64,000 nt of DNA from Escherichia coli (GTDB taxonomy: Bacteria > Pseudomonadota > Gammaproteobacteria > Enterobacterales > Enterobacteriaceae). The DNA lies in assembly GCF_030384885.1 (NCBI RefSeq), contig NZ_CP128613.1; one strand, written 5' to 3'. How positions within the stretch are numbered: position 1 is the stretch's first letter; the number at the start of each line of letters is the position of its first letter. The position numbers were made by a program, and so were the translations under genes. Below the pieces are notes generated by a model. The model saw only the letters and a program-made list of their open reading frames with translations. It did no database searches and was not told where the DNA came from. Positions 10,814-31,807 of this stretch are shown here, in pieces.

Positions 10814-10837
10814 TCTCCTGATTAACCCGGAGCGGTT

Positions 10838-13333
10838 ATGTTAACGATTCAATTTCTCTGTCCTTTGCCAAACGGCCTGCATGCTCGTCCGGCGTGGGAA
10901 CTTAAAGAGCAGTGCAGCCAGTGGCAAAGCGAAATCATCTTCATTAACCATCGCCAGAACGTAAAGGCCGATGCCAAAAGTTCGCTGGCGCTGATTGGCA
11001 CCGGCACCTTATTTAATGACAGTTGCAGCCTGAACATTAGCGGCAGCGATGAAGAGCAGGCGCGGCGCGTGCTGGAAGAGTACATCCAGGTGCGCTTTAT
11101 CGACAGCGACAGCGTCCAGCCGACGCAGGCAGAACTGACGGCACATCCACTGCCGCGTTCATTAAGCCGCCTGAACCCTGATTTACTGTACGGCAATGTG
11201 CTGGCAAGCGGCGTCGGCGTGGGTACGTTGACCCTGCTACAGAGCAACAGCCTCGACAGTTATCGGGCAATCCCGGCTAGTGCGCAAGACTCCACCTGGC
11301 TGGAACACAGCCTGGCAACGCTTGCCGAGCAACTGAACCAGCAGTTGCGCGAGCGTGACGGCGAAAGCAAAACTATCCTCAGCGCCCATTTATCGCTGAT
11401 TCAGGATGATGAATTTGCAGGGAATATCCGTCGCCTGATGGCAGAACAGCATCAGGGGCTGGGGGCTGCGATCATCAGCAATATGGAGCAGGTTTGCGCC
11501 AAGCTTTCTGCCTCTGCCAGCGATTATCTGCGCGAGCGGGTCAGCGACATTCGTGATATCAGCGAACAATTGCTGCATATCACCTGGCCGGAACTGAAGC
11601 CGCGTAATAATCTGGTGCTCGAAAAACCGACCATTCTGGTGGCTGAAGATTTAACCCCTAGCCAGTTTTTGAGCCTCAATTTAAAAAATCTTGCGGGCAT
11701 GATTCTGGAGAAAACCGGGCGCACCTCGCATACTCTGATTCTGGCCCGCGCCTCGGCGATCCCCGTACTGAGCGGCCTGCCGCTGGATGCCATTGCTCGC
11801 TATGCCGGGCAACCGGCGGTGCTTGACGCCCAGTGCGGCGTGCTGGCTATTAATCCTGATGACGCGGTGGGTGGTTATTATCAGGTTGCGCAGACGCTGG
11901 CGGATAAACGCCAGAAACAACAGGCGCAGGCCGCCGCGCAGCTGGCCTATTCCCGTGATAACAAGCGCATTGATATCGCGGCGAATATTGGCACCGCTCT
12001 GGAAGCGCCTGGCGCGTTTGCCAACGGCGCGGAAGGTGTCGGGCTGTTTCGTACCGAAATGCTCTATATGGAGCGCGACAGTGCGCCGGACGAACAGGAA
12101 CAGTTTGAAGCATACCAACAGGTGCTACTGGCGGCGGGCGACAAGCCGATTATTTTCCGCACGATGGACATCGGCGGCGATAAAAGCATTCCTTACCTCA
12201 ACATTCCCCAGGAAGAGAACCCGTTCCTCGGCTATCGCGCGGTACGAATTTACCCGGAATTTGCTGGCCTGTTCCGCACTCAACTGCGGGCTATTTTGCG
12301 TGCCGCCAGTTTCGGCAACGCCCAGCTGATGATCCCGATGGTTCACAGCCTCGATCAGATCTTATGGGTGAAGGGCGAGATCCAAAAAGCGATCGTTGAG
12401 CTTAAACGCGATGGCCTGCGTCATGCAGAGTCGATTACGCTGGGTATCATGGTGGAAGTACCGTCGGTGTGCTACATCATCGACCACTTCTGCGATGAGG
12501 TCGATTTCTTCAGTATCGGTTCTAACGATATGACCCAGTATCTGTATGCGGTCGATCGTAATAACCCGCGCGTATCGCCGCTGTATAACCCGATTACGCC
12601 ATCGTTCCTGCGCATGTTGCAGCAGATTGTTACCACTGCGCATCAGCGCGGCAAATGGGTAGGTATTTGCGGTGAACTGGGCGGTGAAAGTCGTTATCTG
12701 CCGCTACTGCTTGGACTGGGCCTGGATGAGCTGAGTATGAGTAGCCCGCGTATTCCGGCGGTGAAAAGCCAGCTTCGTCAACTGGATAGCGAGGCGTGTC
12801 GGGAACTGGCGCGTCAGGCATGTGAATGCCGCAGTGCGCAGGAAATTGAAGCGTTACTCACCGCCTTTACGCCGGAAGAAGACGTTCGCCCACTGCTGGC
12901 GCTGGAGAATATCTTTGTTGATCAGGCCTTTAGCAATAAAGAGCAGGCGATCCAGTTCCTGTGCGGCAACCTTGGCGTTAACGGGCGTACTGAACATCCG
13001 TTTGAGCTGGAAGAAGATGTCTGGCAGCGGGAAGAGATTGTCACTACTGGCGTTGGTTTTGGCGTGGCGATCCCGCACACCAAATCTCAGTGGATCCGTC
13101 ATTCCAGTATCAGCATTGCCCGGCTGGTGAAACCGGTTGACTGGCAGTCAGAAATGGGCGAAGTCGAACTGGTGATCATGCTGACGCTGGGCGCTAACGA
13201 AGGGATGAACCATGTGAAAGTCTTCTCGCAGCTGGCGCGCAAACTGGTGAATAAAAACTTCCGCCAGTCGTTGTTTGCCGCGCAAGATGCACAAAGCATC
13301 CTGACGCTGCTGGAAACGGAATTAACCTTCTGA
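10838..13333 (+). CDS. fryA: Multiphosphoryl-transfer PTS protein (HPr-EI-EIIA fusion)
   Basis: 831-aa ORF; translation contains an HPr-like N-terminus (LPNGLHARPA) and an Enzyme I-like core. Confidence 0.85.
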   Translation: MLTIQFLCPLPNGLHARPAWELKEQCSQWQSEIIFINHRQNVKADAKSSLALIGTGTLFNDSCSLNISGSDEEQARRVLEEYIQVRFIDSDSVQPTQAELTAHPLPRSLSRLNPDLLYGNVLASGVGVGTLTLLQSNSLDSYRAIPASAQDSTWLEHSLATLAEQLNQQLRERDGESKTILSAHLSLIQDDEFAGNIRRLMAEQHQGLGAAIISNMEQVCAKLSASASDYLRERVSDIRDISEQLLHITWPELKPRNNLVLEKPTILVAEDLTPSQFLSLNLKNLAGMILEKTGRTSHTLILARASAIPVLSGLPLDAIARYAGQPAVLDAQCGVLAINPDDAVGGYYQVAQTLADKRQKQQAQAAAQLAYSRDNKRIDIAANIGTALEAPGAFANGAEGVGLFRTEMLYMERDSAPDEQEQFEAYQQVLLAAGDKPIIFRTMDIGGDKSIPYLNIPQEENPFLGYRAVRIYPEFAGLFRTQLRAILRAASFGNAQLMIPMVHSLDQILWVKGEIQKAIVELKRDGLRHAESITLGIMVEVPSVCYIIDHFCDEVDFFSIGSNDMTQYLYAVDRNNPRVSPLYNPITPSFLRMLQQIVTTAHQRGKWVGICGELGGESRYLPLLLGLGLDELSMSSPRIPAVKSQLRQLDSEACRELARQACECRSAQEIEALLTAFTPEEDVRPLLALENIFVDQAFSNKEQAIQFLCGNLGVNGRTEHPFELEEDVWQREEIVTTGVGFGVAIPHTKSQWIRHSSISIARLVKPVDWQSEMGEVELVIMLTLGANEGMNHVKVFSQLARKLVNKNFRQSLFAAQDAQSILTLLETELTF

Positions 13334-13335
13334 CG

Positions 13336-14193
13336 TTAGCCCTGAAAACGGGCGCTGTACTCTCCCGGCGTCAGGCCAAACTGACGCCGGAAGACGCGAC
13401 AAAAATAGTCGCTGTCCGGAAAGCCGCAACGCTGCGCCACTTCATGAATCGACAGATGATATTTCTGCAAAATCATCCTCGCCTTCGCCATTCGCACCCA
13501 ACGCACATATTCGATAAAACGCATTGTTCCATGCTGCGCAAACAGTTTTGACAGATGATTGGGCGTGATATTAAAAAACTGCGCCACGTTCTCACGGGTG
13601 AGCGGCTGGGCATAATTATCCTGAACCCAGTTACAAATGCTGTGATAGAGAAAATCGCCGCGCGGCTGCGAATTACCCGGCGGCATATTCACCACGTTGC
13701 GGCAAAGATGCAGCAAACTTAACACCAGCGGCTGAATGATATTCTGCTCCAGCGGCGAACGGCTAAGATGGGTGAGGGCAGTAAGCATTGCTTCACCTTC
13801 GCCGCGTTGCAGGCTGGGAAGTTGGATCTGGCGAACCGGATGCAACAACGACGTGGTGCGGCTATCGTAATACGATAAACCAAGCCAGGTCGGCGCGAAC
13901 ACCAGACTTAACAGCATTACCGGTTTGTTGTTGACCGGTAAATTAGCCGCGCGCGCTGGAATAAACAGCATTTCTCCTTCCACCATACGTTGTTGCTTTG
14001 CTTCCAGCTGATTGCCGTATTCGCCGCGTAGCACGATATCCAGACGGGGAAAATCAATACATAAACTGCCCACTGGCAATGAGGCGGGCTGGCTGGCAAA
14101 CCAGACGCGCCCAAGGAGTTGCGGGTTAAGCACCAGGCCGCTGAACAGATCGGCGAAAAATTGTTGATCGGCGGGCAAGCCTGTTGCTTTCAT
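13336..14193 (-). CDS. ypdC: AraC-family transcriptional regulator
   Basis: 285-aa ORF; C-terminal AraC helix-turn-helix signature (LTPGEYSARFQG-type tail). Confidence 0.8.
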   Translation of the reverse strand: MKATGLPADQQFFADLFSGLVLNPQLLGRVWFASQPASLPVGSLCIDFPRLDIVLRGEYGNQLEAKQQRMVEGEMLFIPARAANLPVNNKPVMLLSLVFAPTWLGLSYYDSRTTSLLHPVRQIQLPSLQRGEGEAMLTALTHLSRSPLEQNIIQPLVLSLLHLCRNVVNMPPGNSQPRGDFLYHSICNWVQDNYAQPLTRENVAQFFNITPNHLSKLFAQHGTMRFIEYVRWVRMAKARMILQKYHLSIHEVAQRCGFPDSDYFCRVFRRQFGLTPGEYSARFQG

Positions 14194-14204
14194 GAAAATC
14201 CCGA

Positions 14205-14957
14205 TTACAGATGCATTAACTGCCTGAATTCTTTTACTTTGCTACGGCTGACCGGCACTTCAAAATCCAGATCTTTCAGTCGCAGAATGTAGGTGTTATT
14301 AAACCACGGTTCGATTTCGCGGATTTTGTTCAGATTGACACAAAATGAGCGATGGCAGCGGAAAAAATGCGACGGCGGCAGCTTGCTGCAAAACTCGGTA
14401 ATGTTCATCGGCATTACGTAGGATTCACGCCGCGTATAGACAAAGGTCATTTTCTCGTGCGCTTCGGCGTAATAGATATCGTTAATTGGCGTGACGATGA
14501 TTCGCTCATCTTTCACCAGATTAATGGTGTCATTCTCACGCGTTACCGTCGCGGCAGGCGTACTGCTGGTCTGCTGTTGTTGCCAGGCTGCTTCCAGTTT
14601 TTGCAGCATCCCGGTAATGCGTGATTCCTGATACGGTTTGAGAATGTAGTCAAACGCTTCCAGTTCAAACGCTTCTACCGCATGTTCTTTCCACGCGGTG
14701 ATGAACACAATAAACGGTTTATGGGCGAACTGGCTGATGTTTTGCGCCAGCAACACACCATCCAGCGACGGAATATTGATATCCAGAAAAATGGCGTCGA
14801 CGCGGTTATGCTGCAAAAACTTCAACACGTCCAGACCGTCGTCAAAGGTGCCGACAATCTCCATCTGGCTGTGCTCTTTAATTAGCCAGCTCAGTTCCTG
14901 TTGTGCCAGGAATTCGTCTTCAACAATGATGACTTTCACAATATCACTCCGGCTCAA
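14205..14957 (-). CDS. ypdB: LytTR-family two-component response regulator
   Basis: N-terminal receiver domain ([15 protein letters not shown]...[10 protein letters not shown]) and C-terminal LytTR domain. Start overlaps the ypdA stop; the true start may be the GTG six codons downstream. Confidence 0.85.
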
Positions 14958-16651
14958 AGCAATAACGTAGCCTGTGAGGCGACAGGGGTGCGTTGGTTAG
15001 GAATGTAAAACGCAATTTCCGTTCCTGGTTCCAGGCGGCGGATATGCAGCCCCTCGCCATACAATAACTTCACGCGATGATGGACATTCAGCAGGCCAAT
15101 TTTATTGCCCGGCATTTCGTTCGCTTCGACCCGCTCAATGACTTTTGGATCGATGCCGTGCCCGGTATCTCGCACCGCAATGCGTACCCGATTACCGCAC
15201 TCTGCAACGCTGATGGTGACAACGCCTTTACCTTTGCAAGGCTGAATACCGTGGACAATGGCGTTCTCCACTAAAGGCTGGATCAGCAGGCTGGGAATGC
15301 AGCAATTCACCTCTTCATCAATATCATAGATAACCGTCAGCTTGTCGCCAAAGCGGGCCTGCTCAATGGCAATATAGTCTTTAATTTGATACAGCTCTTT
15401 TTTGATATCGATTTGCTCATCGTCTTTTAATTCAATGTTATAGCGCAGATAACGCGACAGATTAAAGATCAGCTGGCGAGCGGTATCCGGATTCAGACGG
15501 ATCGACGATGAGATAGCATTCAGAGCATTAAACAGGAAATGGGGATTAATTTTGCTTTGCAGAGCGCGAAGCTCTGCCTTATTTGCCATTTCACGTAGTT
15601 GCTCGGCGCGTGAAACCTCCAGTTGGGTGGAGATGATTTGCGACAGACCGACCGCCATTTCCTGTAATGACGAGGTGATCTGATGTGCGTGGCAGTAGTA
15701 AATTTTCAGCGTCCCGGTCACGACCCCTTTCTCCCAAAGCGGGATCACCAGCATCGAGTGGATTTCCGGTGTACGGTGGGCTTCATCATTGTTTTTAATA
15801 ATGATTTTTCCGTAATTCATTGCCTGACGCGTTGTTGGGCTGATGAAATCATCGCCATTCTGATAGTTGTGTTCACCTACGCCAACATAGGCCAGCACAT
15901 GATCGGTGTTGGTAATCGCTACCGCATCGGCGTGAATATCATCGCGGATAATTTCACAAACTTTGCGTAATGACTCGCTATTGACATGGCGAAACAGCGG
16001 CAGCGTTTTGTTGGCGATATCCAGCGCCAGCTTGGCCTGCCGCGCGGCGCTGGCCTCTTTTTCGCCCTCAACGCTTTGTACCAGCAACACAATAAAGCCG
16101 ATACAAACGCTGCCGAGGATCATCGGAATCCCGATTTTGGAGACGATATCAATCCCCAGTGCAGTGGTGGGTGCCCAGACAATCACCAGGATCATCGTCA
16201 ACGTTTCACATAACATGCCACCGAGAATACCGACGCGCCAGCGCTGTGCTTTGGGGATTTTCAGGTTGATCCAGCCTGATATGCAACCCGCGAGAATACT
16301 GGTGATAAAGCACGGAATTGCCGTCACGCCGCCGATGTCGATTAAATAACGGTGAATACCCGCAATCACACCGGTAATGATGCCTACCCACGGGCCAAAT
16401 AGAATTCCGCCTGACATCACCGCGATAATACGCACATTAACCAGCGAGCCTTCTACGGGCACGCCGGACCAGGTGCTGAACAGGGCGAACAGCGAGAAAA
16501 TGGCGGTAACGGCGAGCAGCTCTTTTGGGGAGTGCGCCGACTTGTGCAACAGTTCGCGAAACAGGCGGATACGGATGAGAAAGAACAGGCAGATAAGCAT
16601 TAACGCTGCCCGATCGAAGACCGCCAGCAGCATGTTGAATATTTCGTGCAC
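14954..16651 (-). CDS. ypdA: Two-component sensor histidine kinase (LytS/5TM-GAF type)
   Basis: 565-aa ORF with N-terminal multi-TM region and C-terminal histidine kinase/ATPase motifs ([16 protein letters not shown]). Confidence 0.85.
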
Positions 16652-17027
16652 GGGTGACTCTGAATAAGGATTAAACCTCTATGATAGGTAACCTGAAGGC
16701 CGATGACCAGCAGGCCGTTTTTGAGGAAAGACCACAATTTTAAAAGGGGATTGAAAGTTAAATGGTGTATTAGCAATGCATCTCTTAATAATGCATATCT
16801 GTTTGGTAAATTTATTGAAATTATAATGTTAATAAATTGAGTGGTAATTTTCTTGTTAGCGTAGATAAATTTCCTGTTTTTAAAGCGGAGTTCCTCATTT
16901 AAGGCTATTAACAAAAATGTTCTAAAACGCTGGACAGACAGAAATTAATCAGGCTATTTTCAAAACAGCCACCATCGTGGCAGCGTCGCTCGGACGGTCC
17001 GGGCGCTCACGTTAATCTGAGGAAATT

Positions 17028-18266
17028 ATGGCTGACACTCGCCCTGAACGTCGCTTTACGCGTATTGATCGTCTCCCACCCTACGTTTTTAACATTACCG
17101 CTGAACTGAAAATGGCTGCGCGTCGGCGCGGCGAAGATATTATCGATTTCAGTATGGGTAACCCGGACGGTGCGACCCCGCCGCATATCGTCGAAAAATT
17201 ATGTACGGTGGCCCAGCGACCGGACACGCATGGTTATTCCACCTCGCGTGGTATTCCGCGGTTACGTCGCGCCATTTCCCGCTGGTATCAGGATCGCTAC
17301 GACGTCGAGATCGACCCGGAATCAGAGGCTATCGTCACCATTGGCTCGAAAGAGGGGCTGGCGCATCTGATGCTGGCGACGCTGGATCACGGTGACACTG
17401 TACTGGTGCCTAATCCAAGCTACCCGATTCATATTTACGGCGCGGTGATTGCCGGGGCGCAGGTACGCTCAGTGCCGCTGGTGGACGGTGTCGATTTCTT
17501 CAACGAACTGGAACGCGCCATTCGCGAAAGTTATCCGAAACCGAAGATGATGATCCTCGGCTTCCCGTCGAACCCAACCGCGCAATGCGTGGAACTGGAA
17601 TTCTTTGAGAAGGTTGTGGCGCTGGCGAAACGCTACGATGTGCTGGTGGTCCATGACCTGGCCTATGCCGATATCGTCTACGATGGCTGGAAAGCGCCGT
17701 CAATTATGCAGGTGCCGGGTGCACGAGACGTGGCGGTCGAGTTCTTTACGCTGTCGAAAAGCTACAACATGGCGGGCTGGCGTATCGGCTTTATGGTCGG
17801 TAACAAAACGCTGGTCAGTGCGTTGGCACGTATTAAAAGCTATCACGATTACGGTACTTTTACGCCGTTGCAGGTGGCGGCGATTGCGGCACTGGAGGGC
17901 GATCAACAGTGCGTGCGCGATATTGCCGAACAGTACAAACGCCGCCGCGATGTACTGGTTAAAGGGCTGCATGAAGCAGGCTGGATGGTCGAAATGCCGA
18001 AGGCTTCGATGTATGTCTGGGCGAAAATCCCGGAACCATATGCGGCCATGGGCTCACTGGAATTTGCCAAGAAACTGCTTAACGAAGCGAAGGTCTGTGT
18101 CTCTCCAGGGATTGGCTTTGGCGACTACGGCGACACCCATGTCCGCTTTGCGCTGATTGAAAACCGCGACCGTATACGCCAGGCGATTCGTGGAATTAAA
18201 GCGATGTTCCGTGCCGACGGTTTACTACCCGCCAGCAGCAAACATATTCACGAAAACGCGGAATAA
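17028..18266 (+). CDS. alaC: PLP-dependent aminotransferase (glutamate-pyruvate aminotransferase AlaC)
   Basis: 412-aa ORF with class I aminotransferase motifs including the lysine region [12 protein letters not shown]. Confidence 0.85.
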
Positions 18267-18288
18267 ACACCATCGCCAGAAATGCAAA

Positions 18289-18314
18289 CAGGAGCCAGAT
18301 GGCTCCTGTTTTTC
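18289..18314 (+). terminator. Intrinsic terminator downstream of alaC
   Basis: caggagccagatggctcctg followed by ttttt. Confidence 0.7.
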
Positions 18315-18339
18315 ATTGCACAGTTTGCTTTTAGATCAT

Positions 18340-18411
18340 CAGGGCAAAAGTACCGGCCCAAACGATGACCATAAAAGAAATGCCCATAAAGAAATATTTC
18401 ACTTTACATCT
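18340..18411 (-). CDS. ypdK: Small membrane protein (23 aa, GTG start)
   Basis: Minus-strand reading VKYFFMGISFMVIVWAGTFALMI then stop; too short to appear in the ORF track; position between alaC and lpxP. Confidence 0.5.
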
Positions 18412-18756
18412 CTCCGCGTAATTACTGTTACGCCTGAATGACTTCATTACACCTGATACAGTGAGTTGACACCGGGCAAAACGACATTGAAAGTCCATAT
18501 TTTACCGTGGGCATCACCCCAGAATTCTGAGCTAAACTGCTCGAGACGGCGCTAATGTACGCCTAAAACTGAAACGAGACAAGAGGCATTTTCTTATTTA
18601 CTTTTAGTAACTTACAGGTGTCTCATATCGGCGACAGTTTAATTTCTGACGGTAATAATTAGAGATTCAGCGAAGGAAAAAACCTTAAGAAAAAAGCCAT
18701 AAAAACCATGAGGTTATTATGGCTGATTTGAGGAGGGAAAGAGTAAGAGCAGTTTG

Positions 18757-19677
18757 TTAAATGTATAACGACGATTCTCCCACCGGGCGCGTTTTAAAGC
18801 GACGGTGGATCCAGAGGTACTGCTCCGGTGCGCGCATAATCTCTTTCTCGATAATCTTGTTCATATAGGCAGCGGCTTGATTTTCATCTGCCGGGTAGCC
18901 TTCCATTTCAGGGGTGATGAACAACCGATATCCGCTGTAATCCGTTTTTCTGACCATCGTTACGGTCAACATGGCTGCGCCAGAGAGACGAGAGAGGACA
19001 TAGGTGCCATTGGTTGTAGCAACATTTTCTACCGCAAAGAACGGTGCGAAGGAGCTACCTTTACGACCATAATCCTGATCGGGAGCAAACCATACGGCTT
19101 CACCTTTCTTCAGCGCACCGACAATACCGCGCAGATTATTTCTGCCGATCATCGCTTTGTTAGAGCGCATGCGACCACGGGTCTGCACCCATTCCATCAG
19201 CTGATTATTATGCGGACGATAGGTGGCCATCATTGGCTGACATAGTCCCATCACGCGGCCGCCCAATTCCAGCGACATAAAATGGACGCCGACAACCATC
19301 ACGCCACGATTCTGCAGTTGTGCGCGTTTGAGGTTATCCAGCCCTTCAACATCAAACCATTTACGTACGCGACTGTCGGGCCAGAACCATGCCATGCCGG
19401 TTTCTACCAGCGCCATGCCGAGTGAACGAAAGTTTTCGGCAATCATCTTCTCGCGCTCTTCAGCAGAATGCTGTGGGAAACAAAGTTCCAGGTTCTTACG
19501 GGCGATAGATTCACGACGTTTCAGGAATGGTCGCGCCATCGTGCCGATACGCGTGCCGAGAAAACAGAGAACAGGGTAAGGAAGCTGTACCCAAAGCCAG
19601 AGTACACCAAGCCCAAACCATGTGAGCCAGTAGCGAGGATGTAGAAACTCGCGGGAAAATTTGCATTTTGGAAACAT
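18757..19677 (-). CDS. lpxP: Lipid A biosynthesis palmitoleoyl acyltransferase (cold-induced)
   Basis: Translation from the internal Met MFPKCKFSREFLHPRYWLTWFGLG (306 aa) matches LpxP; the ORF-track start is 22 codons further upstream. Confidence 0.88.
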   Translation of the reverse strand: MFPKCKFSREFLHPRYWLTWFGLGVLWLWVQLPYPVLCFLGTRIGTMARPFLKRRESIARKNLELCFPQHSAEEREKMIAENFRSLGMALVETGMAWFWPDSRVRKWFDVEGLDNLKRAQLQNRGVMVVGVHFMSLELGGRVMGLCQPMMATYRPHNNQLMEWVQTRGRMRSNKAMIGRNNLRGIVGALKKGEAVWFAPDQDYGRKGSSFAPFFAVENVATTNGTYVLSRLSGAAMLTVTMVRKTDYSGYRLFITPEMEGYPADENQAAAYMNKIIEKEIMRAPEQYLWIHRRFKTRPVGESSLYI

Positions 19678-20030
19678 AGTTACCTTCTGTAGATACGAAT
19701 TGTTGTATCGCAGAAGATTCCATGTCGACAGCGGTACACTCAATTGATTGGGCCATCATGTACGACAATGGTTCCTGTAAAGAGTGTAAAGACTAGTCAG
19801 GACATAACCACGAGGAGCATGAATGCGGTGCTTTTACTTTATCACTGGCTGACTGCTTTCAGCTACTGATTATTTATCGTGCAAAGTAAATATTTTTTTC
19901 GCACATTACAGTCTTGCATTTAACGTGCTGTTTTCATTAATACTTAGCAAAAATTGCCAGAGGTTAAGGATTGTCTTACTATTAAAGTGACTGAAGTTAC
20001 AGGTTTTTTAGCGCGGCAGGAGGTTGAGCT

Positions 20031-20273
20031 ATGATTTATTTATGGATGTTTCTCGCCCTGTGTATTGTCTGCGTAAGCGGATACATCGGTCAGGTACTGA
20101 ACGTGGTCTCGGCGGTCTCTTCTTTCTTCGGCATGGTGATCCTCGCTGCACTCATTTACTACTTCACCATGTGGTTAACTGGCGGTAATGAACTAGTGAC
20201 GGGGATATTTATGTTTCTTGCCCCGGCTTGTGGCTTGATGATTCGCTTTATGGTGGGGTATGGCAGGCGGTAG
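20031..20273 (+). CDS. yfdY: Small inner-membrane protein
   Basis: 80-aa hydrophobic ORF MIYLWMFLALCIVCVSGYIGQ. Confidence 0.7.
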   Translation: MIYLWMFLALCIVCVSGYIGQVLNVVSAVSSFFGMVILAALIYYFTMWLTGGNELVTGIFMFLAPACGLMIRFMVGYGRR

Positions 20274-20349
20274 TAGTTCAGGATGGATCATTTGGGCAGG
20301 TGCTCACATCATCAACAGATATGATTGTTCACCTGCCATGTGACAGACG

Positions 20350-20625
20350 CTATCGCACAGGATGAATAAGATAATTCGCCTTTGTCGGAAAAGGGGGCGT
20401 GATGTCTTCTGTGAGATTTAATGGTGGCGCATCTTCTCTCATCTTAAACAAAATCGCCTGTGATGGTTGAAGTTTTGTAGAATGAGTTGTCGTCATCACT
20501 GACGTTTTTTCTGTCTCTTTATAGCTCGTCTCACTTCCACCACCAGAAATGGAAAATGCAAAAACATTGCATGCCATAATAGAGACCAATAAAAATAAGC
20601 TAAAAAGCATTAAGTTTACTTTCAT
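20350..20625 (-). CDS. ypdI: Small predicted lipoprotein / secreted protein
   Basis: 91-aa ORF with signal peptide and a cysteine in lipobox-like context (LLVSIMACN). Confidence 0.65.
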   Translation of the reverse strand: MKVNLMLFSLFLLVSIMACNVFAFSISGGGSETSYKETEKTSVMTTTHSTKLQPSQAILFKMREDAPPLNLTEDITPPFPTKANYLIHPVR

Positions 20626-20767
20626 AGAAAGTTATCCTGAGAATGGCTCACTGAGAACCTACGATGTTATGGCTGTATTTACATTTAATTAATCAGTATT
20701 TACATCGATATAATAAATGACATCTCTTTGTGGTATATAAGAATAGTTCTCTGCGACAGGAAGCATA

Positions 20768-20785
20768 TTCCTACAATTGTAAGAC
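20768..20785. promoter_or_regulatory. EvgA box (18-bp inverted repeat) upstream of yfdX
   Basis: ttcctacaattgtaagac matches the TTCYTACA-N2-TGTARGAA EvgA motif. Confidence 0.65.
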
Positions 20786-20807
20786 TAAAATACTTCTTGC
20801 GATAATA

Positions 20808-20823
20808 ACTACAACTGTAAGAT
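20808..20823. promoter_or_regulatory. Second, weaker EvgA box-like site upstream of yfdX
   Basis: actacaactgtaagat shares the CTACA-N-TGTAAGA core. Confidence 0.4.
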
Positions 20824-20920
20824 AACCCTTTCAAAATGACCGTTGCTCTCTGATTTCTCATTTCATGCTCACCCAATATGATGGCGGCGTTTTCTAAAAC
20901 TGTTAAAGAATGAGGTAAGT

Positions 20921-21553
20921 ATGAAACGTTTAATTATGGCTACGATGGTCACAGCGATTTTGGCATCATCAACTGTATGGGCTGCTGATAATGCACCGGT
21001 AGCAGCACAACAGCAAACTCAGCAAGTTCAGCAAACCCAGAAAACTGTAGCAGCAGAGCGTATCTCTGAACAGGGTTTATATGCGATGCGTGACGTGCAG
21101 GTAGCGCGCCTGGCTCTGTTTCATGGCGATCCGGAAAAGGCAAAAGAACTGACCAATGAAGCTTCAGCTTTGCTGTCAGATGACAGTACTGAATGGGCAA
21201 AGTTCGCTAAGCCAGGTAAAAAGACCAATATCAATGATGACCAATATATTGTCATTAATGCATCTGTCGGAATTTCTGAGAGTTATGTAGCGACACCAGA
21301 AAAAGAAGCAGCGATAAAAATTGCGAATGAAAAAATGGCGAAAGGAGATAAAAAGGGCGCAATGGAAGAGCTTCGCCTGGCCGGTGTTGGCGTAATGGAA
21401 AACCAATATCTGATGCCGCTTAAACAGACTCGTAATGCACTTGCTGATGCGCAGAAACTGCTTGATAAAAAGCAATACTACGAGGCAAACCTGGCGCTTA
21501 AAGGTGCGGAAGATGGAATCATCGTCGATAGCGAAGCACTGTTTGTGAACTAA
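20921..21553 (+). CDS. yfdX: Periplasmic YfdX-family protein (EvgA-regulated)
   Basis: 210-aa ORF with signal peptide [21 protein letters not shown]. Confidence 0.85.
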
Positions 21554-21611
21554 TGCTGACAGGCAGCATATTGAAGTAAAAGATTTTACTCCCTCCAGGC
21601 GACAATTTTTT

Positions 21612-21640
21612 ATGACCACAATACGACCGATTGTGGTCAT
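21612..21640. terminator. Perfect 11-bp inverted-repeat hairpin downstream of yfdX, likely a terminator
   Basis: atgaccacaat acgaccg attgtggtcat flanked by T/A runs on both strands. Confidence 0.55.
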
Positions 21641-21797
21641 AAAATTATTTGGCGCTCGCGGTTCTATAAACACGCATTTTCTATTCCTCAAAGTAAACAT
21701 TAATAATCCCGTGTCATCACGAAATCATTGTTTATGTTATGTTTTATGGTACGATTTAAAAATCGTAATCATTTCCCTAACTGTAAATCACAATCGC

Positions 21798-21815
21798 TTC
21801 TTACAGTTGTAAGAA
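21798..21815. promoter_or_regulatory. EvgA box upstream of frc
   Basis: ttcttacagttgtaagaa is a perfect palindrome matching the EvgA motif, about 250 bp upstream of frc. Confidence 0.7.
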
Positions 21816-22066
21816 TAACATCACAAATGTCGCGGCTCTCTCTGATTACCGCAAACCAATATTTATCATATTCTTCTTTTCGTCCTCACTACTTACCATG
21901 CAAAAAGGAATTGGAAGTGGCGATGAAATGATTTCCAGCACTTGATACAGGAATTTAAAAATATCGAGTGCAGCTACGACGATATTTTGCGGATTATTTA
22001 TAGAGGGCGTTATGCCTTAAATAAACGCTAAATTAACATATATTTAATTAACTAATAGGTATTGCT

Positions 22067-23317
22067 ATGTCAACTCCACTTCAAGGAATTAAAGTTCTCG
22101 ATTTCACCGGTGTGCAATCTGGCCCATCTTGTACTCAGATGCTGGCGTGGTTTGGCGCTGACGTCATTAAAATTGAACGTCCCGGCGTTGGTGACGTAAC
22201 GCGTCGCCAGCTGCGAGATATTCCTGATATCGATGCACTTTACTTCACCATGCTTAACAGCAACAAACGTTCTATTGAATTAAATACCAAAACAACGGAA
22301 GGCAAAGAGGTAATGGAAAAGCTGATCCGCGAAGCTGATATCTTGGTCGAGAACTTTCATCCAGGGGCTATTGATCACATGGGCTTCACCTGGGAGCATA
22401 TTCAGGAAATCAACCCACGTCTGATTTTTGGTTCGATCAAAGGGTTTGATGAGTGTTCGCCTTATGTGAATGTAAAAGCCTATGAAAACGTTGCTCAGGC
22501 AGCGGGTGGCGCGGCATCCACTACGGGTTTTTGGGACGGCCCGCCGCTGGTAAGCGCTGCAGCGTTGGGTGACAGCAACACCGGAATGCATTTGCTGATC
22601 GGTTTACTTGCTGCTTTGCTGCATCGCGAAAAAACGGGGCGTGGGCAACGAGTTACCATGTCAATGCAGGATGCCGTGTTGAACCTTTGCCGCGTGAAAT
22701 TACGTGACCAGCAGCGCCTCGATAAGCTGGGTTATCTGGAAGAATACCCGCAGTATCCGAATGGCACATTTGGCGACGCAGTACCACGCGGTGGTAATGC
22801 GGGTGGTGGCGGTCAGCCTGGCTGGATCCTGAAATGTAAAGGCTGGGAAACCGATCCTAACGCCTATATTTATTTCACTATTCAGGAGCAAAACTGGGAA
22901 AACACCTGTAAAGCTATCGGCAAACCAGAATGGATTACCGATCCGGCATACAGTACAGCTCATGCCCGACAGCCACATATTTTCGATATTTTTGCTGAAA
23001 TCGAAAAATACACTGTCACTATTGATAAACATGAAGCGGTGGCCTATTTGACTCAGTTTGATATTCCTTGTGCACCGGTTTTAAGTATGAAAGAAATTTC
23101 ACTTGATCCCTCTTTGCGCCAAAGTGGCAGTGTTGTCGAAGTGGAGCAACCGTTGCGTGGAAAATATCTGACAGTTGGTTGTCCAATGAAATTCTCTGCC
23201 TTTACGCCGGATATTAAAGCTGCGCCGCTATTAGGTGAACATACCGCTGCTGTATTGCAGGAGCTGGGTTATAGCGACGATGAAATTGCTGCAATGAAGC
23301 AAAACCACGCCATCTGA
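22067..23317 (+). CDS. frc: Formyl-CoA:oxalate CoA-transferase (family III CoA-transferase)
   Basis: 416-aa ORF; N-terminus [43 protein letters not shown] typical of family III CoA-transferases. Confidence 0.9.
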
Positions 23318-23370: not shown

Positions 23371-25065
23371 ATGTCAGATCAACTTCAAATGACAGATGGT
23401 ATGCATATCATCGTTGAAGCATTAAAACAGAATAATATTGACACTATTTATGGTGTTGTAGGTATTCCTGTGACGGATATGGCGCGCCATGCCCAGGCGG
23501 AAGGCATTCGTTATATTGGTTTTCGTCATGAGCAATCTGCAGGCTATGCGGCTGCGGCAAGCGGTTTTCTTACCCAAAAGCCAGGGATCTGCCTGACCGT
23601 TTCTGCGCCAGGATTCCTCAATGGTTTGACCGCATTGGCCAACGCAACAGTAAATGGTTTTCCGATGATCATGATCAGCGGCTCCAGCGATCGCGCGATC
23701 GTTGATCTCCAGCAAGGTGATTATGAAGAGCTGGACCAAATGAATGCGGCAAAACCCTATGCCAAAGCGGCATTCCGCGTTAACCAGCCGCAGGATCTTG
23801 GCATTGCGTTGGCACGCGCTATCCGGGTCTCCGTTTCGGGTCGCCCTGGCGGTGTTTATCTTGATTTGCCAGCAAATGTCCTGGCTGCGACGATGGAAAA
23901 GGACGAGGCATTAGCCACTATTGTTAAAGTTGAAAACCCATCGCCAGCGTTATTGCCATGCCCGAAGTCAGTCACTAGTGCAATTTCGCTGTTAGCAAAA
24001 GCAGAACGGCCATTAATTATCCTTGGTAAAGGCGCGGCGTATTCACAAGCTGATGAGCAGCTTCGTGAGTTTATTGAAAGTACCCAGATTCCATTCCTGC
24101 CAATGTCTATGGCGAAAGGGATCCTGGAAGATACGCATCCACTTTCTGCGGCGGCTGCGCGTTCGTTTGCGCTGGCAAATGCTGATGTTGTCATGCTTGT
24201 TGGGGCGCGACTGAATTGGTTACTGGCGCACGGTAAAAAAGGATGGGCGGCAGATACACAGTTTATTCAACTGGATATAGAACCGCAGGAAATTGACAGC
24301 AATCGACCCATTACTGTGCCAGTCGTTGGCGATATTGCATCCAGTATGCAAGGTATGCTGGCAGAACTGAAACAAAACACATTTACGACTCCACTGGTGT
24401 GGCGCGATATTTTAAATATCCACAAGCAGCAAAATGCGCAAAAAATGCATGAAAAGTTAAGTACAGATACCCAACCATTAAATTACTTTAATGCATTGAG
24501 TGCGGTGCGCGATGTATTGCGCGAGAACCAGGATATTTATTTAGTTAATGAAGGGGCAAATACCCTGGATAATGCACGAAATATTATTGATATGTATAAA
24601 CCACGTCGTCGTCTGGATTGTGGCACCTGGGGTGTCATGGGCATCGGTATGGGCTATGCCATCGGTGCTAGCGTGACCTCTGGTTCTCCGGTTGTCGCCA
24701 TTGAAGGTGATAGTGCTTTTGGTTTCAGTGGGATGGAGATTGAAACGATTTGTCGATATAACCTGCCGGTGACAATCGTTATTTTTAATAATGGCGGCAT
24801 CTACAGAGGAGACGGTGTTGATCTCAGTGGCGCTGGTGCACCATCACCAACAGATCTATTGCACCATGCAAGGTATGACAAATTAATGGATGCATTTCGT
24901 GGCGTTGGATATAACGTCACCACGACAGATGAACTTCGTCATGCTTTAACCACCGGTATTCAGTCGCGCAAACCGACCATTATTAATGTGGTCATCGACC
25001 CAGCAGCAGGAACTGAAAGTGGCCATATTACCAAACTTAACCCAAAACAAGTCGCTGGTAATTAA
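23371..25065 (+). CDS. oxc: Oxalyl-CoA decarboxylase (ThDP-dependent)
   Basis: 564-aa ORF with thiamine-diphosphate binding motif ([15 protein letters not shown]...N). Confidence 0.9.
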
Positions 25066-25133: not shown

Positions 25134-26078
25134 ATGCTAACATTTTTTATTGGCGATTTATTGCCTATTATCGTAATCATGCTGTTGGGTTATTTTAGCG
25201 GCAGACGAGAAACTTTTTCAGAAGATCAAGCCCGGGCATTTAATAAACTGGTATTAAACTACGCTCTTCCTGCGGCCCTATTTGTTTCTATTACCCGGGC
25301 AAACAGGGAAATGATTTTTGCGGACACTCGCCTGACCCTTGTATCACTTGTGGTTATTGTCGGATGTTTCTTTTTCTCCTGGTTTGGTTGCTACAAATTT
25401 TTTAAACGTACCCATGCAGAAGCAGCAGTATGTGCATTAATTGCAGGTTCACCTACCATTGGATTCCTGGGGTTTGCAGTTCTCGACCCTATTTATGGTG
25501 ATTCCGTATCAACAGGTTTAGTGGTAGCAATTATTTCTATTATTGTTAACGCAATTACTATTCCTATTGGTCTGTATTTGCTGAATCCCTCCTCAGGAGC
25601 GGATGGTAAGAAGAATAGCAATCTGAGCGCGTTAATCTCTGCGGCAAAGGAGCCAGTCGTATGGGCACCTGTTCTGGCAACGATCTTGGTGTTGGTTGGG
25701 GTAAAAATTCCGGCAGCATGGGATCCAACCTTTAATCTGATTGCGAAGGCTAACTCAGGGGTAGCGGTATTCGCTGCGGGGTTGACTCTGGCTGCACATA
25801 AATTCGAGTTCAGTGCTGAAATTGCTTATAACACCTTCCTGAAGCTGATTCTGATGCCACTGGCACTGCTTCTCGTTGGTATGGCATGTCATTTGAACAG
25901 CGAACATCTGCAGATGATGGTACTGGCAGGCGCATTACCGCCGGCATTCTCCGGAATCATTATTGCCAGCCGGTTTAATGTCTACACCCGCACTGGTACA
26001 GCGTCATTGGCTGTTAGCGTGCTGGGTTTTGTCGTCACGGCTCCCTTGTGGATTTATGTCAGTCGACTGGTTTCATAA
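25134..26078 (+). CDS. yfdV: AEC-family (auxin efflux carrier-like) membrane transporter
   Basis: 314-aa polytopic ORF directly downstream of oxc. Confidence 0.8.
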
Positions 26079-26151: not shown

Positions 26152-27297
26152 ATGACCAATAATGAATGCAAAGGGCCGTTTGAAGGCTTATTAGTTATCG
26201 ATATGACGCATGTCCTTAATGGGCCTTTCGGAACTCAACTTCTTTGTAATATGGGCGCAAGGGTAATTAAAGTTGAGCCGCCAGGTCATGGTGATGATAC
26301 CCGCACATTTGGTCCCTATGTGGATGGACAGTCACTCTATTACAGTTTTATTAATCATGGCAAAGAGAGTGTGGTTCTTGATTTAAAGAATGATCACGAT
26401 AAAAGCATATTTATAAATATGCTTAAACAAGCGGATGTATTAGCTGAGAATTTTCGCCCAGGTACAATGGAAAAACTGGGGTTTTCATGGGAAACGCTAC
26501 AAGAAATCAACCCGCGTCTCATCTATGCTTCATCGTCAGGTTTTGGGCATACTGGCCCGCTAAAAGATGCTCCTGCCTACGATACCATCATTCAGGCAAT
26601 GAGCGGGATAATGATGGAAACGGGATACCCTGATGCTCCGCCTGTGCGCGTGGGTACCTCTCTTGCGGATTTATGTGGCGGTGTCTATTTATTCAGTGGA
26701 ATCGTGAGTGCGCTTTATGGCCGCGAAAAAAGCCAGCGAGGGGCGCATGTCGATATCGCGATGTTTGATGCCACTCTGAGTTTTCTGGAGCATGGACTGA
26801 TGGCATATATCGCGACAGGGAAGTCACCACAACGTCTGGGAAATCGTCACCCCTACATGGCACCTTTTGATGTTTTCGATACTCAGGATAAACCAATTAC
26901 GATTTGTTGTGGTAATGACAAGCTTTTTTCTGCGTTATGCCAGGCACTGGATCTGACGGAACTTGTTGATGATCCCCGATTTATCAGCAATATTTTACGC
27001 GTACAAAACCAGGCTATTCTTAAACAATATATTGAGCGGACGTTAAAAACGCAGGCAGCTGAAGTTTGGTTAGCCAGAATACATGAAGTTGGTGTACCCG
27101 TAGCGCCGTTATTAAGTGTGGCTGAGGCCATTAATTTGCCACAAACTCAGGCGAGAAATATGTTGATTGAAGCCGGGGGAATAATGATGCCGGGTAATCC
27201 GATAAAAATCAGCGGCTGCGCGGACCCGCATGTTATGCCGGGAGCGGCAACGCTCGACCAGCATGGGGAACAAATTCGCCAGGAATTCTCATCGTAA
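26152..27297 (+). CDS. yfdE: Family III CoA-transferase (acetyl-CoA:oxalate CoA-transferase)
   Basis: Translation from MTNNECKGPFEGLLVIDMTHVLNGPFG (381 aa); paralogous to frc. The ORF-track start at 26104 is 16 codons upstream. Confidence 0.85.
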   Translation: MTNNECKGPFEGLLVIDMTHVLNGPFGTQLLCNMGARVIKVEPPGHGDDTRTFGPYVDGQSLYYSFINHGKESVVLDLKNDHDKSIFINMLKQADVLAENFRPGTMEKLGFSWETLQEINPRLIYASSSGFGHTGPLKDAPAYDTIIQAMSGIMMETGYPDAPPVRVGTSLADLCGGVYLFSGIVSALYGREKSQRGAHVDIAMFDATLSFLEHGLMAYIATGKSPQRLGNRHPYMAPFDVFDTQDKPITICCGNDKLFSALCQALDLTELVDDPRFISNILRVQNQAILKQYIERTLKTQAAEVWLARIHEVGVPVAPLLSVAEAINLPQTQARNMLIEAGGIMMPGNPIKISGCADPHVMPGAATLDQHGEQIRQEFSS

Positions 27298-27315: not shown

Positions 27316-27355
27316 AATAGCTCCCACATTTGAACATTGTGGGAGCCGCTATTTA
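27316..27355. terminator. Bidirectional hairpin between convergent yfdE and evgS
   Basis: aaatagctcccacatttgaacattgtgggagccgctattt, stem gctcccaca/tgtgggagc. Confidence 0.6.
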
Positions 27356-30300
27356 GTCATTTTGTTGACAGAAAACCGCAATCTCCTGGTCTAACTCTGC
27401 AATGTGTTCTTTAACAGAGTTCAGCAACTTAAGAATTTCAGGCTTGCTGTCATCTGAAACGGGCGTTATTTCTAACTGGTGGCTAAGATTAATCAACTTT
27501 TGCAAATTCAGGATGTTAGCCGCACCGTGGATGCGATGAATACACTGATGGAAAGTTCTGTTATCGCCAGCTTCTAACGCATGAAACGCAGCGGGTAGAT
27601 CTTTATGCGTTTCATGCTGGAAAGTCATGAGAATCTCCTGCATCAGTTGTAGATCGTTCGCCGTATTATTTTTCAGGGCCTCGATATCAAGGTGGCGATA
27701 CTGAGGTGCAATATGCGCAACCTGGTGTAACTGACTTAAATGTGTTTTCAGTACATCCAGGGTTAACGGTTTGAACAAACATAAGTTCATGCCGCAATTT
27801 AACCCTTTGTCGCGTTCATTAGCCTGTGCGTTGGCCGTAAGCCCCCAGACGGGTAAAGAATAATGTTGCTCACGGAGTTTGCGGGTCAACTCAAAACCAT
27901 CCATATTCGGCATATTAACGTCAGTAATAAACAGATCATAATGCTGCATACTGACTTTGTGTAGCGCCTGTACACCATCAGAGGCTTCATCAACATCATA
28001 CCCTAATAGGTTTAGCTGGCGTTTGAGTAAAAGTCTGTTTGTCGGATGATCATCCGCGATTAATATGTTTAATTTTTCAGGCAGTGTGACGGGTTGTTCT
28101 GGTTTTGCCTCGACAGTCGCCACTTGCTGGGTAATTTCTACCGGGATTGTGATTGTAAAAGTCGTTCCTATGCCGGGATGACTTTCTAATGACAAATCGC
28201 CCTGCATGTTTTTGATTAATTCTTTGCAGATCATGAGGCCTAAACCAGAACCTGTTTGCTGACGACCTGCTGTTGTTTGGCTATAGCGTTTAAACAGTTG
28301 TTGTTGTTCTTCCTGCGATAATCCGCTTCCGGTGTCCATAATCGTCATTTTGATAACAGCGTGGTAGTCATCAATATGAACCAGGGAAGTCGTAATTTTT
28401 ACTGCCCCCTCGGTGGTAAATTTAAGGGCATTACTCAGTAAATTAGACAGCACCTGCTTAAATGCTTGAGGGTCGATTTTAACCAGGTAGCGTTCAGGAA
28501 GCGTACTGCTGCAATTTAATGCGATGGATTTGCTTGCAGCAATCGCACCGAAAGAATGACAAGTGTTCTGGACTAAAGCAGGGATATCGACCCATTGTGG
28601 TTGAAGTTGATAGTTACCCGATTCAATTTTGTCGACATCAAGGATTTCACCAATTAAGCCGAGGAGCGACTGTCCGGTGGCGTAAGCAAGTGAAATCGCC
28701 TCCACACGTTGCTCCTTGCTAAGACCTGAACCCGACAGAAGTTCCAGGAAGCCCATAATGGAGCTTATTGGTGTTCTTATTTCGTGACTCATTGTTGCCA
28801 GGAACTGGCTTTTTGCGACAGTTGCATTGATAGCTTTATTTCTTTCTACTTCGAGTGCATGAATTAAATCACGCGTCTCGGTAATATCTTGCCAACCACA
28901 AATATATACTGCATTGTCACTTGCAGGTAAATTGCATAATGTATGCCAATGATTAATGCATCTTTTTTCAATACCATTATTAATTTCAAAAACTTGGCTA
29001 TATATTGTTCTGTTTTCTTTTGTTTCTGCTGTGACTTCATGCACATTAGAAAAAACATCTTTAAAGGGGGAGTCACTGTTTTCTAATGGTAACATTGCAT
29101 TTTTGTAGTAATCAGCAGTGAAATAATGTTCAAATGCACTATTGTGACTAATGACATTACCTTGCCAGTTTACAACATAAGTTGGATTCGGTAAGGAATC
29201 CGAGAGTGCTTTCCGGAATGATATTTGGTTTTCTAAATCACCCTGAATTACCTTACGACGACGAACTGAGCGTAACAGGTAGAATCCCCATAAAAGGCTA
29301 CTGCCAACTAATAAAACGGATAAAGTCGTAACAATGTAAAATTGCTCACTATAGAGGTCCCATGTGTCAATGGTCACATTGGGCATTTTGATCCATTTTT
29401 CCGTCAGGCGCAGAACTTCGCTTGGGGGAATTGCATTCAATGCTTTATTAATAATATCCTTAAGTTCTGGTTCTCCGCGAGGAAAAGCGAACGAAAGCGA
29501 TGCATTCTCAACGCCGGGAATAAGAAAATGATAAAGCTCATTAGGATAGTAATGGTCGATCATGTAACGCGAATTTAGCTGTGTCGCGACCAGGGCATCA
29601 AGTTCACCTTCCTTAACCTTGTGAAATGCAGCGCTAGCATTATCGACTTGTATCCACTCAACCTCCGGATACATCTCTTTCAATTGCGAATGAAGCTCAT
29701 AATAATATGGAATGGCAACTTTCATTCCTTTTTTTAAAGTTTGTTCACTATCAGGCGCTTTTTGCATGACGAAAACGTAAGGCGTTGTTATGAATGCTTC
29801 AGCAAATAAAACATTATTTTCTCGATCTTCACTATAAATAGCACCAGGTAAGATATCCCATCCATCGGGATTAAGCTGTGTTCCGGCATGGATATTGTGT
29901 GAAACGGTGATCGGAGAAAATTTTAAACCTGTTTGCAATGTAATAATATTAAGAATATCCCCCATAACGCCCCGAACCGAGCCATTTTCATCAGTCATAG
30001 AATAGGGGGGCGAGTAAGGATTTTCCAGCACCCTTAATTCGGGATGCTGCTTAATCCACAGTTTTTCATGTTCAGTGAGTTCTAATGGTTTGTTCAGAAA
30101 GGCCAGGTTCCCTGTATCAAGCCAATTTTGTGATACTTCATAGCGAACTTCATTTGTTAAAGCATCGACAAATCGATTGAGTACTTCATTAAGAACAACT
30201 GATTCTTTTCTGGTTAAGAAGAAATTATATTGGCGCGGTGTACTATAATAATTTACTACATTTAAGGAGTGAGTAAAATATCGGGAAATCATACTACTGG

Positions 30301-30950: not shown

Positions 30951-31565
30951 TTAGCCGATTTTGTTACGTTGCGCAAATGTGTAAAGATCCATCAGTGATT
31001 TACATTCTAATTTTTCCATCAGGCGACTTTTATAAGTGCTGACAGTTTTGTTGCTGATGAACATTTTCTCGGCAATGTCATTGTTATCTTTGCCATCGAG
31101 GATATAGCGCATGACACTAATTTCTTGTTTCGATAAGGAGTCGAGTTTTTGCTGGTCGGACGTTAAACTTCCAACAAATCGATTGAGAGAGAAGGGGAAA
31201 TAGCAGTAGCCATTTTTTGCTGCTTCAATAGCCGCAATGATATTGTTCATGCCCTCTTTTTTACTGACGAATCCATTAGCGCCAGCATCAGCACAATGTT
31301 TCCCGTAAAAATGGTCATTTTTAGCGGAGACGATAATAATAATTCCGCTATATTGGCGCTTCCTCAGTGTTTCTAACACCTGGATACCGTTAACTCCGGG
31401 GATATCGACGTCAATGATGACGATATCAGGCTTAAGTGTTTCCACCCGTTGAACGGCGCTTCCGCCTTCAGTCAACTCGGCTAAGATTTCAATATCGTTT
31501 TTGATCAATAAATTACGAATTGCTGCGATAGCAAGAGGATGGTCATCAATAATTATTGCATTCAT
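30951..31565 (-). CDS. evgA: Response regulator EvgA (NarL/FixJ family)
   Basis: 204-aa ORF MNAIIIDDHPLAIAAIRNLL with C-terminal LuxR-type HTH. Confidence 0.93.
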   Translation of the reverse strand: MNAIIIDDHPLAIAAIRNLLIKNDIEILAELTEGGSAVQRVETLKPDIVIIDVDIPGVNGIQVLETLRKRQYSGIIIIVSAKNDHFYGKHCADAGANGFVSKKEGMNNIIAAIEAAKNGYCYFPFSLNRFVGSLTSDQQKLDSLSKQEISVMRYILDGKDNNDIAEKMFISNKTVSTYKSRLMEKLECKSLMDLYTFAQRNKIG

Positions 31566-31789: not shown

Positions 31790-31807
31790 ATCCTACAGGC
31801 GTAAGAA
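31790..31807. promoter_or_regulatory. EvgA box in the evgA-emrK divergent promoter region
   Basis: atcctacaggcgtaagaa; same inverted-repeat motif as upstream of yfdX and frc. Confidence 0.65.

Follow-up and report, generated by a model that had tools for sequence, protein, structure and literature searches.

The region considered here lies within a 64-kb stretch of Escherichia coli DNA, the whole of which (the window) was analyzed, and carries ypdI on the minus strand, yfdX-frc-oxc-yfdV-yfdE on the plus strand, evgS-evgA on the minus strand and emrK-emrY on the plus strand, in that order (Table 1). Strain 2013C-4282 shows 100% identity over positions 20400-22200, and for most other complete genomes the identity there is 94-97%. 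The EvgA protein matches that of K-12 at 204 of 204 residues; EvgS, at 1197 aa, is full length and 95% identical to its K-12 counterpart, with 55 substitutions.

Table 1. Genes, EvgA boxes and predicted promoter elements, with their window coordinates; a dot marks features without strand.
Feature	Coordinates	Strand	Basis or remarks
ypdI CDS, lipoprotein, divergent from yfdX	20350-20625	-	ORF; ypdI annotation in the 100%-identical strain 2013C-4282
ypdI promoter core, predicted	20710-20742	-	TCTTAT 20742-20737; -10 TATTAT 20715-20710; predicted start ~20703
EvgA box 1, ypdI/yfdX	20768-20785	.	TTCCTACAATTGTAAGAC; 1 mismatch; PWM 15.1 bits
EvgA box 2, ypdI/yfdX	20806-20823	.	TAACTACAACTGTAAGAT; 3 mismatches; PWM 12.4 bits; 38 bp from box 1
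yfdX promoter core, predicted	20849-20854; 20877-20882	+	TCTGAT; -10 TATGAT; predicted start ~20889
yfdX CDS	20921-21553	+	ORF; annotation
Hairpin after yfdX, terminator-like, 15-bp stem	21608-21644	+	perfect inverted repeat
frc promoter EvgA box	21798-21815	.	TTCTTACAGTTGTAAGAA; 0 mismatches; PWM 22.1 bits, window maximum
frc promoter core, predicted	21841-21846; 21869-21874	+	TCTGAT; -10 TATTCT; canonical offsets; conserved in Y. vastinensis
frc CDS	22067-23317	+	ORF; annotation
oxc CDS	23371-25065	+	ORF; annotation
yfdV CDS	25134-26078	+	ORF; annotation
yfdE CDS	26152-27297	+	ORF; annotation
evgS	27353-30946	-	full length vs K-12
evgA	30951-31565	-	protein identical to K-12
evgA/emrK EvgA box	31790-31807	.	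ATCCTACAGGCGTAAGAA; 2 mismatches; PWM 19.1 bits
emrK-ward elements after evgA/emrK box	31833-31838; 31861-31866	+	TCCTCT; TAAATT; canonical offsets
IS2 in emrK	32072-33402	-	1331 bp; AGGAG duplication 32067-32071 / 33403-33407

A scan of the 64 kb for the box consensus TTCYTACANNTGTARGAA, allowing up to 3 mismatches, returns four matches, all intergenic, where 0.67 would be expected by chance; none of 100 dinucleotide-preserving shuffles gave four. Two lie between ypdI and yfdX, one between yfdX and frc and one between evgA and emrK, and their half-site arrangement and spacing are those of the safA, ydeP and yegR boxes. A weight matrix (PWM) trained solely on these three K-12 sites, which lie outside the window, was also applied, as a sequence-only reading of the same DNA had suggested; the boxes rank 1, 2, 3 and 5 in the 64 kb. 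The frc box comes first, outscoring the best match in each of 100 simulated windows; next come the emrK box and, third, box 1, while box 2, in fifth place, is at chance level by score alone. A further candidate inside emrK, at 34393-34410, scores 13.3 bits, close to the mean best match of random windows (12.0), and has no promoter layout downstream; we regard it as a chance match.

The sequence-only reading had placed EvgA-type inverted repeats at 20768-20785 and 20808-20823 upstream of yfdX and at 21798-21815 upstream of frc, and a further box in the emrK promoter. All four are found; the first three coordinates are right, the second interval being the inner 16 nt of box 2, and the emrK promoter contains the evgA/emrK box of Table 1. 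The frc repeat, described there as a perfect palindrome, does have 8-bp arms that are perfectly complementary, but its central GT is not self-complementary, which makes the box palindromic at 16 of 18 positions. A documented regulon was in this way recognizable from the letters alone, without tools.

Each of the four boxes has exactly the K-12 MG1655 sequence, although the neighbouring spacers are about 4% divergent. In an alignment of 11 E. coli alleles chosen to span the range of identities, box 1 and the frc box show no change at any of their 16 specified positions. For comparison, variable columns make up 20% and 25% of the two intergenic regions, 40% of the stretch that separates box 1 from box 2, and 35% of the 150 bp preceding the frc box. 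Differences among these alleles do occur in the central dinucleotides (AT/AC in box 1, AC/GT in box 2 and GT/GC in the frc box). Fixed 8-bp arms with variable centres and flanks characterize the sites across the 11 E. coli alleles, Yersinia vastinensis and Buttiauxella, apart from the decayed box 1 of Y. vastinensis; invariant arms around variable centres are the pattern expected of a dimer reading two half-sites. The frc box lies inside an invariant island (~21798-21834) that is the longest invariant stretch of the 513-bp yfdX/frc spacer. The PWM score of box 2 is not significant by itself; the case for this box comes from its position and conservation. A natural three-box allele, in which a 38-bp duplication adds a third box upstream of yfdX, is common in natural isolates.

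We conclude that the palindromes in the window are very probably the known EvgA binding sites. They share sequence, relative position and genes with the K-12 EvgA boxes, i.e. those of ydeP, safA-ydeO, yegR, yfdX, frc and emrKY/evgAS; the strain differs from K-12 in the IS2 in emrK, the 95%-identical EvgS and the ~4% spacer divergence, and the sites themselves show no difference. The primary papers on the K-12 EvgA box are reportedly those of Masuda and Church (2002/2003) and of Itou, Eguchi and Utsumi (2009). Primary work on this box is cited in PMC3720670, PMC4222967 and PMC8147483. PMC3720670 describes inverted repeats bound by EvgA in front of both yfdX and yfdWUVE, and PMC8147483 names yfdX and frc among the promoters that EvgA binds. 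Published expression data, the second kind of check that the sequence-only reading had named, agree: a mutation that makes evgS constitutive raises frc more than any other gene (log2 8.37) and yfdX by log2 6.97, and the authors of that study found EvgA sites only at already known targets (PMC4283999). By ribosome profiling, yfdX, frc, oxc and yfdV are among the most acid-induced genes (PMC10746267). EvgA control of yfdX and of frc-oxc-yfdV-yfdE, as first read from the letters, is thus a point on which sequence, K-12 identity and literature agree and which is already published; given the base-for-base match to studied K-12 sites, it is a correct rediscovery and not a new result. Modestly new are the promoter layout, part of which Itou et al. 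(2009) may already describe, the proposal that box 1 serves ypdI, the three-box allele of natural isolates, and the finding that evgAS and its boxes also occur in genera other than Escherichia and Shigella.

That the repeats might be chance palindromes in AT-rich intergenic DNA is suggested by the score of box 2, which is that of the best match of a random 64-kb sequence, and by the equally good match inside emrK. Chance is nevertheless refuted for every box except box 2, and as an account of the whole set we give it practically no credence: four matches were never reached by shuffling, and the four sites are intergenic, stand beside known EvgA targets, are identical to K-12 and keep conserved arms amid variable bases. 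Related regulators of the NarL/FixJ family recognize similar TAAGAA/TTCCTA half-sites, and another member of that family, e.g. RcsB (alone or with GadE), could be the main binder in place of EvgA. RcsB is reported to regulate yfdX in Klebsiella pneumoniae, according to the title of PMC6394985. We find a main binder other than EvgA extremely unlikely, however, since the half-sites are arranged and spaced as in the EvgA boxes of safA, ydeP and yegR, the E. coli induction data tie these genes to EvgS/EvgA, and in two further genera the boxes accompany evgAS.

Downstream of yfdX, the terminator-like hairpin has a folding energy of -25.2 kcal/mol (z = -6.25); 4 of its 15 stem pairs are G-C, and its tail, TTATTTGG, is a weak U-run. 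The hairpin arms are invariant, including in Y. vastinensis, and the loop is variable; a compensatory pair of stem changes, A>G / T>C, is present in strain H9. The frc box lies 260 bp upstream of the frc start codon, and from a predicted start at ~21881 the frc leader would be ~186 nt long. A scan for internal terminators from frc to yfdE found weak hairpins only, 8 against 6.3 expected and none of them convincing; occurring at the rate of chance, these provide no evidence against a frc-oxc-yfdV-yfdE operon. An Rfam search of positions 20300-22300, which include the long frc leader, returned no structured RNA above cut-off; a 'drum' match inside yfdX (E = 0.39; 21 bits, where the cut-off is 43) is noise. 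The conserved hairpin, the separate frc box, the lack of a convincing internal terminator and the stronger induction of frc than of yfdX together support two transcription units, a monocistronic yfdX and a separate frc-oxc-yfdV-yfdE.

A common promoter layout is suggested by comparison of seven EvgA-type promoters (yfdX box 2, frc, emrK, safA, ydeP, yegR and Buttiauxella yfdX), with offsets anchored on the 3' end of the box. The seven promoters carry CA at offsets 9-10, and five of the six from E. coli have G at offset 19. The motif TCYKMT is present at offsets 26-31 in 7 of 7, as TCTGAT in yfdX, frc and Buttiauxella yfdX, TCCTAT in safA and yegR, TCCTCT in emrK and TCTTAT in ydeP, and a TAnnnT hexamer starts at offset 53 or 54 in all seven. 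When the yfdX promoters of E. coli and Buttiauxella are compared, no invariant block is longer than CTCTGAT. The set includes two possible paralogous pairs, yfdX/frc (43% identical over 60 nt) and safA/ydeP (63%); in a test on four promoters that avoids such pairs, circular-shift controls equalled the best 6-nt window in 3-4 cases out of 5000 and the 26-31 window in 12-70 out of 5000. If the TAnnnT hexamer is the -10 element, the box would be centred at about -74.5 and TCYKMT would span roughly -40 to -35. The core of the EvgA half-site, TCYTA, recurs here 42 bp, i.e. four helical turns, from the same bases of the distal half-site. A promoter scan at yfdX gives TTCTCA-16-TATGAT. When offsets 3-22, on the way from the primary box to the -35 region, were inspected by eye for another complete EvgA box, about half of the specified positions matched, which is near chance. 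A fixed layout, if true, would make EvgA targets and their start sites predictable from sequence.

Applied to the ypdI/yfdX region, the layout separates the two boxes. Box 2 is followed toward yfdX by CA, TCTGAT and TATGAT at the canonical offsets, and box 1 has no such yfdX-ward layout; leftward of box 1, in the direction of ypdI, there is TCYKMT at offsets 26-31, TAnnnT at 53 and G at 19. The joint chance of TCYKMT and TAnnnT is ~1.7e-4 per orientation in AT-rich sequence, and both elements (ATAAGA and ATAATA as read on the plus strand) are invariant in the 11 E. coli alleles. The canonical elements are absent from the other four orientations, among them the leftward flanks of box 2 and of the frc and emrK boxes; from their absence at the emrK box it follows that evgA would use a different geometry. 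The second yfdX-upstream repeat had been described as the weaker one. It is the poorer match, with 3 mismatches against 1, but judging by promoter geometry the two probably do not serve one gene as its strong and its weak site: box 2 is probably the yfdX site, and box 1 probably also, or mainly, serves the divergent ypdI. The layout would thereby reassign the two boxes upstream of yfdX to two divergent genes. The full proposal, a fixed EvgA promoter layout in which yfdX and ypdI each have a primary site, box 2 and box 1 respectively, placed back to back, and ypdI is a direct EvgA target, is a tentative one, to which we would give somewhat less than an even chance.

Published data place ypdI in the company of EvgA targets. 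It is up by log2 2.75 in the evgS-constitutive mutant (PMC4283999), and exposure to glutathione raises ypdI 5.5-fold, yfdX 9.8-fold and yegR 11.9-fold, with acid-stress genes also up (PMC5811628). The EvgA iModulon includes b2367-b2368 and b2371-b2376, the last of which is ypdI (PMC10833566 supplement), and the layout would provide a sequence basis for this unexplained membership. The literature searched contained no publication that gives ypdI a direct EvgA site. The induction of ypdI is much weaker than that of yfdX, and may have an indirect cause or spill over from the shared region.

Both boxes could instead act on yfdX alone, with box 1 an upstream helper at about -112 and ypdI induced indirectly. 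If the 122-nt evgA leader used in PMC11210196 applies, the evgA/emrK box is ~111 bp upstream of the evgA start, an indication that a site near -112 can function; the induction of ypdI is modest, and the common 38-bp duplication that creates a third box suggests tolerance to, or selection on, box number. We nonetheless consider an action on yfdX alone rather unlikely, as TCTTAT and TATTAT lie leftward of box 1 exactly at the canonical offsets and are invariant in E. coli, ypdI belongs to the EvgA iModulon, and Y. vastinensis, which has no ypdI, has a box 1 decayed to 3 mismatches and no leftward promoter elements. In an older picture, the yfdX promoter alone would transcribe a single yfdXWUVE operon (frc being yfdW and oxc yfdU), and the frc palindrome would be redundant or inert. 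The operon name is used in the abstract of PMC3720670, and the five genes from yfdX to yfdE are indeed on one strand and co-induced. Against this, yfdX is followed by a stable, conserved hairpin with a compensatory substitution, while the frc box is the best consensus match of the window, sits in the longest invariant stretch of the spacer and has a -10 element of its own at the canonical distance; frc is, moreover, induced more than yfdX. A figure legend of PMC3720670 itself separates 'yfdX and yfdWUVE', and PMC8147483 lists frc as an EvgA-bound promoter. A single operon is therefore highly unlikely, and we retain a separate frc-oxc-yfdV-yfdE unit alongside yfdX.

In the most probable mechanism, mildly acidic pH would cause the hybrid kinase EvgS to phosphorylate EvgA, a dimer of which would bind the 18-bp inverted repeat, with one helix-turn-helix per TTCYTAC half-site, and activate the sigma-70 promoter downstream. 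Four units in the window would respond: yfdX as far as its hairpin, frc-oxc-yfdV-yfdE, the IS2-cut emrKY and, by prediction, ypdI. The frc unit, with its predicted own promoter and long leader, encodes the oxalate to formate CoA cycle, which consumes a proton. Activation would plausibly resemble that by BvgA, in which an upstream primary site is combined with promoter-proximal contacts, more than that from a site overlapping the -35 region. The promoter of fhaB in Bordetella is an example of one activated by BvgA. The two regulators are of the same family and use inverted heptad-like half-sites (TTTCCTA for BvgA, TTCYTAC for EvgA), and the EvgA primary site would likewise lie well upstream of -35, with weaker half-site-like sequence reaching -35. 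The spacing would differ, however, since the predicted EvgA arrangement, with its 42 bp between the distal half-site and the proximal motif and a box centre at about -74.5, contrasts with a 22-bp BvgA repeat. The BvgA/BvgS system of Bordetella is the one after which EvgA/EvgS was named (PMC9496106).

Were ypdI a direct EvgA target, YpdI would resemble SafA as a second EvgA-induced small envelope protein able to activate other signalling, and EvgS/EvgA might then have a second link to another signalling system alongside that from SafA to PhoQ; this is speculation. SafA is a small membrane protein that links EvgS/EvgA to PhoQ/PhoP. Overproduction of YpdI activates the Rcs phosphorelay without RcsF (bioRxiv 10.1101/2024.08.29.610257), which makes a link from EvgS/EvgA to Rcs conceivable. 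YpdI differs from SafA in that its activation of Rcs is known from overproduction.

The insertion in emrK bears on a single output of the regulon. IS2 cuts the gene after nt 91 (codon 30), 265 bp downstream of the intact EvgA box, and the transposase genes of the element run in the direction opposite to emrK. The two parts of emrK are nt 1-91, at 31981-32071, and nt 87-1164, at 33403-34480. The IS2 ORFs pass the NCBIfam cut-offs for TnpA/TnpB (NF006918, 700 bits against 597; NF006928, 276 bits against 229). Three strains that are 100% identical in the flanks have no IS2 in emrK, and a query with the junction region was at least 80% covered in 4 of 5426 genomes, at 94-95% identity; given these flank-identical strains and the rarity of the junction, the insertion looks recent and strain-specific. 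The evgA/emrK box and the predicted emrK promoter are untouched by IS2, so that the strain keeps its K-12 EvgA sites intact while losing emrKY. From this arrangement, the likely effect of IS2 is the loss of EvgA-driven emrKY expression. The sequence-only reading had combined the insertion with a regulon that is 'partly rewired'; the insertion that it saw is real, a 1331-bp IS2 with a 5-bp duplication, but it amounts to the loss of one output and not to rewiring. The activity of the regulon is a separate matter: natural EvgS variants differ in low-pH sensing and some are blind to it (PMC5706723), and with 55 substitutions in EvgS the regulon activity of this strain is not readable from the sites alone.

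The boxes and evgAS occur together in two further genera, and a published statement that restricts EvgS/EvgA to E. coli and Shigella is thereby corrected. In Yersinia vastinensis the complete island, yfdX-frc-oxc-yfdV-yfdE-evgS-evgA, is present with its gene order unchanged, and the box TTCTTACACGCGTAAGAA lies upstream of frc. In Buttiauxella species, gadC-gadB-hdeA/B-hdeD are followed by the box TTCTGACATATGTAAGAC and then by yfdX-evgS-evgA, and an additional box, TTCCTACACATGTAGTCA, is found upstream of evgA. The first Buttiauxella neighbour gene, suspected from its size to be EvgA, is HdeD (DUF308), and the real evgA lies beyond evgS. Buttiauxella EvgA is 71% identical to that of E. coli, and the stretch ISNKTVSTYKSRLMEKL in its C-terminal DNA-binding (GerE) domain is unchanged.

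The evgS/evgA pair extends beyond Escherichia and Shigella: Yersinia vastinensis and Buttiauxella carry orthologues of both genes, adjoined by yfdX and EvgA-type boxes. In Y. vastinensis the yfdX-frc-oxc-yfdV-yfdE-evgS-evgA island is complete, with ars and type I-F cas genes adjoining it; the Buttiauxella gene order is gadC-gadB-hdeA/B-hdeD-yfdX-evgS-evgA. In the window itself, EvgA is identical to that of K-12 and EvgS differs from its K-12 counterpart at 55 of 1197 residues. Acid sensing varies among natural EvgS alleles (PMC5706723); the acid response of the window's strain is therefore uncertain.

Upstream of yfdX, a sigma-70-like site with an extended -10 spans box 1, the first of two EvgA-type inverted repeats, together with the spacer, and its predicted start falls within box 2; the site may be a promoter that bound EvgA blocks, or it may extend box 2. 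The segment TTGCGATAAT in this region shows no variation across the E. coli alleles compared and Y. vastinensis, and the spacer outside it is the most variable stretch. Some E. coli isolates have a 38-bp tandem duplication between boxes 1 and 2 (20768-20823); in these isolates yfdX is preceded by three EvgA boxes, and the ypdI/yfdX intergenic region measures 333 bp, versus 295 bp without the duplication. A query spanning the duplication junction returned 415 records at ≥99% identity, about 8% of complete genomes, with up to seven matching places per genome in some genomes.

Features at the yfdX, frc and emrK loci and in comparison genomes (comparison loci in their own coordinates)
Feature	Coordinates	Remarks
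Sigma-70-like site	20777-20806	TTGTAA-18-TGcGATAAT
Hairpin after yfdX	21608-21644
15-codon ORF MQKGIGSGDEMISST	21898-21945	in inferred frc leader, ~17 nt past predicted start
evgS	27353-30946
Match TGCTTACACCAGTAAGGC	34393-34410	3' end of emrK, 70 bp upstream of emrY
38-bp duplication	385-480	L017 (strain E47), L026 (strain 504211)
Y. vastinensis island	10001-20615	L027
Buttiauxella noackiae genes	5703-14559	L023

The short ORF in the frc leader has an uninterrupted frame in E. coli alleles, which differ in the amino acids encoded, but its ATG is missing from Y. vastinensis and no obvious ribosome-binding site was seen for it; it is probably not a conserved leader peptide. The weight-matrix match TGCTTACACCAGTAAGGC ranks fourth in the window at 13.3 bits, which is chance level, and an EvgA-type promoter layout is absent downstream of it; it would be of consequence only as the source of an IS2-independent emrY promoter. 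The hairpin after yfdX looks like a two-way terminator because its flanks are A/T-rich; strain H9 (L020) carries a compensatory double change in it, from ATGACC...GGTCAT to ATGGCC...GGCCAT.
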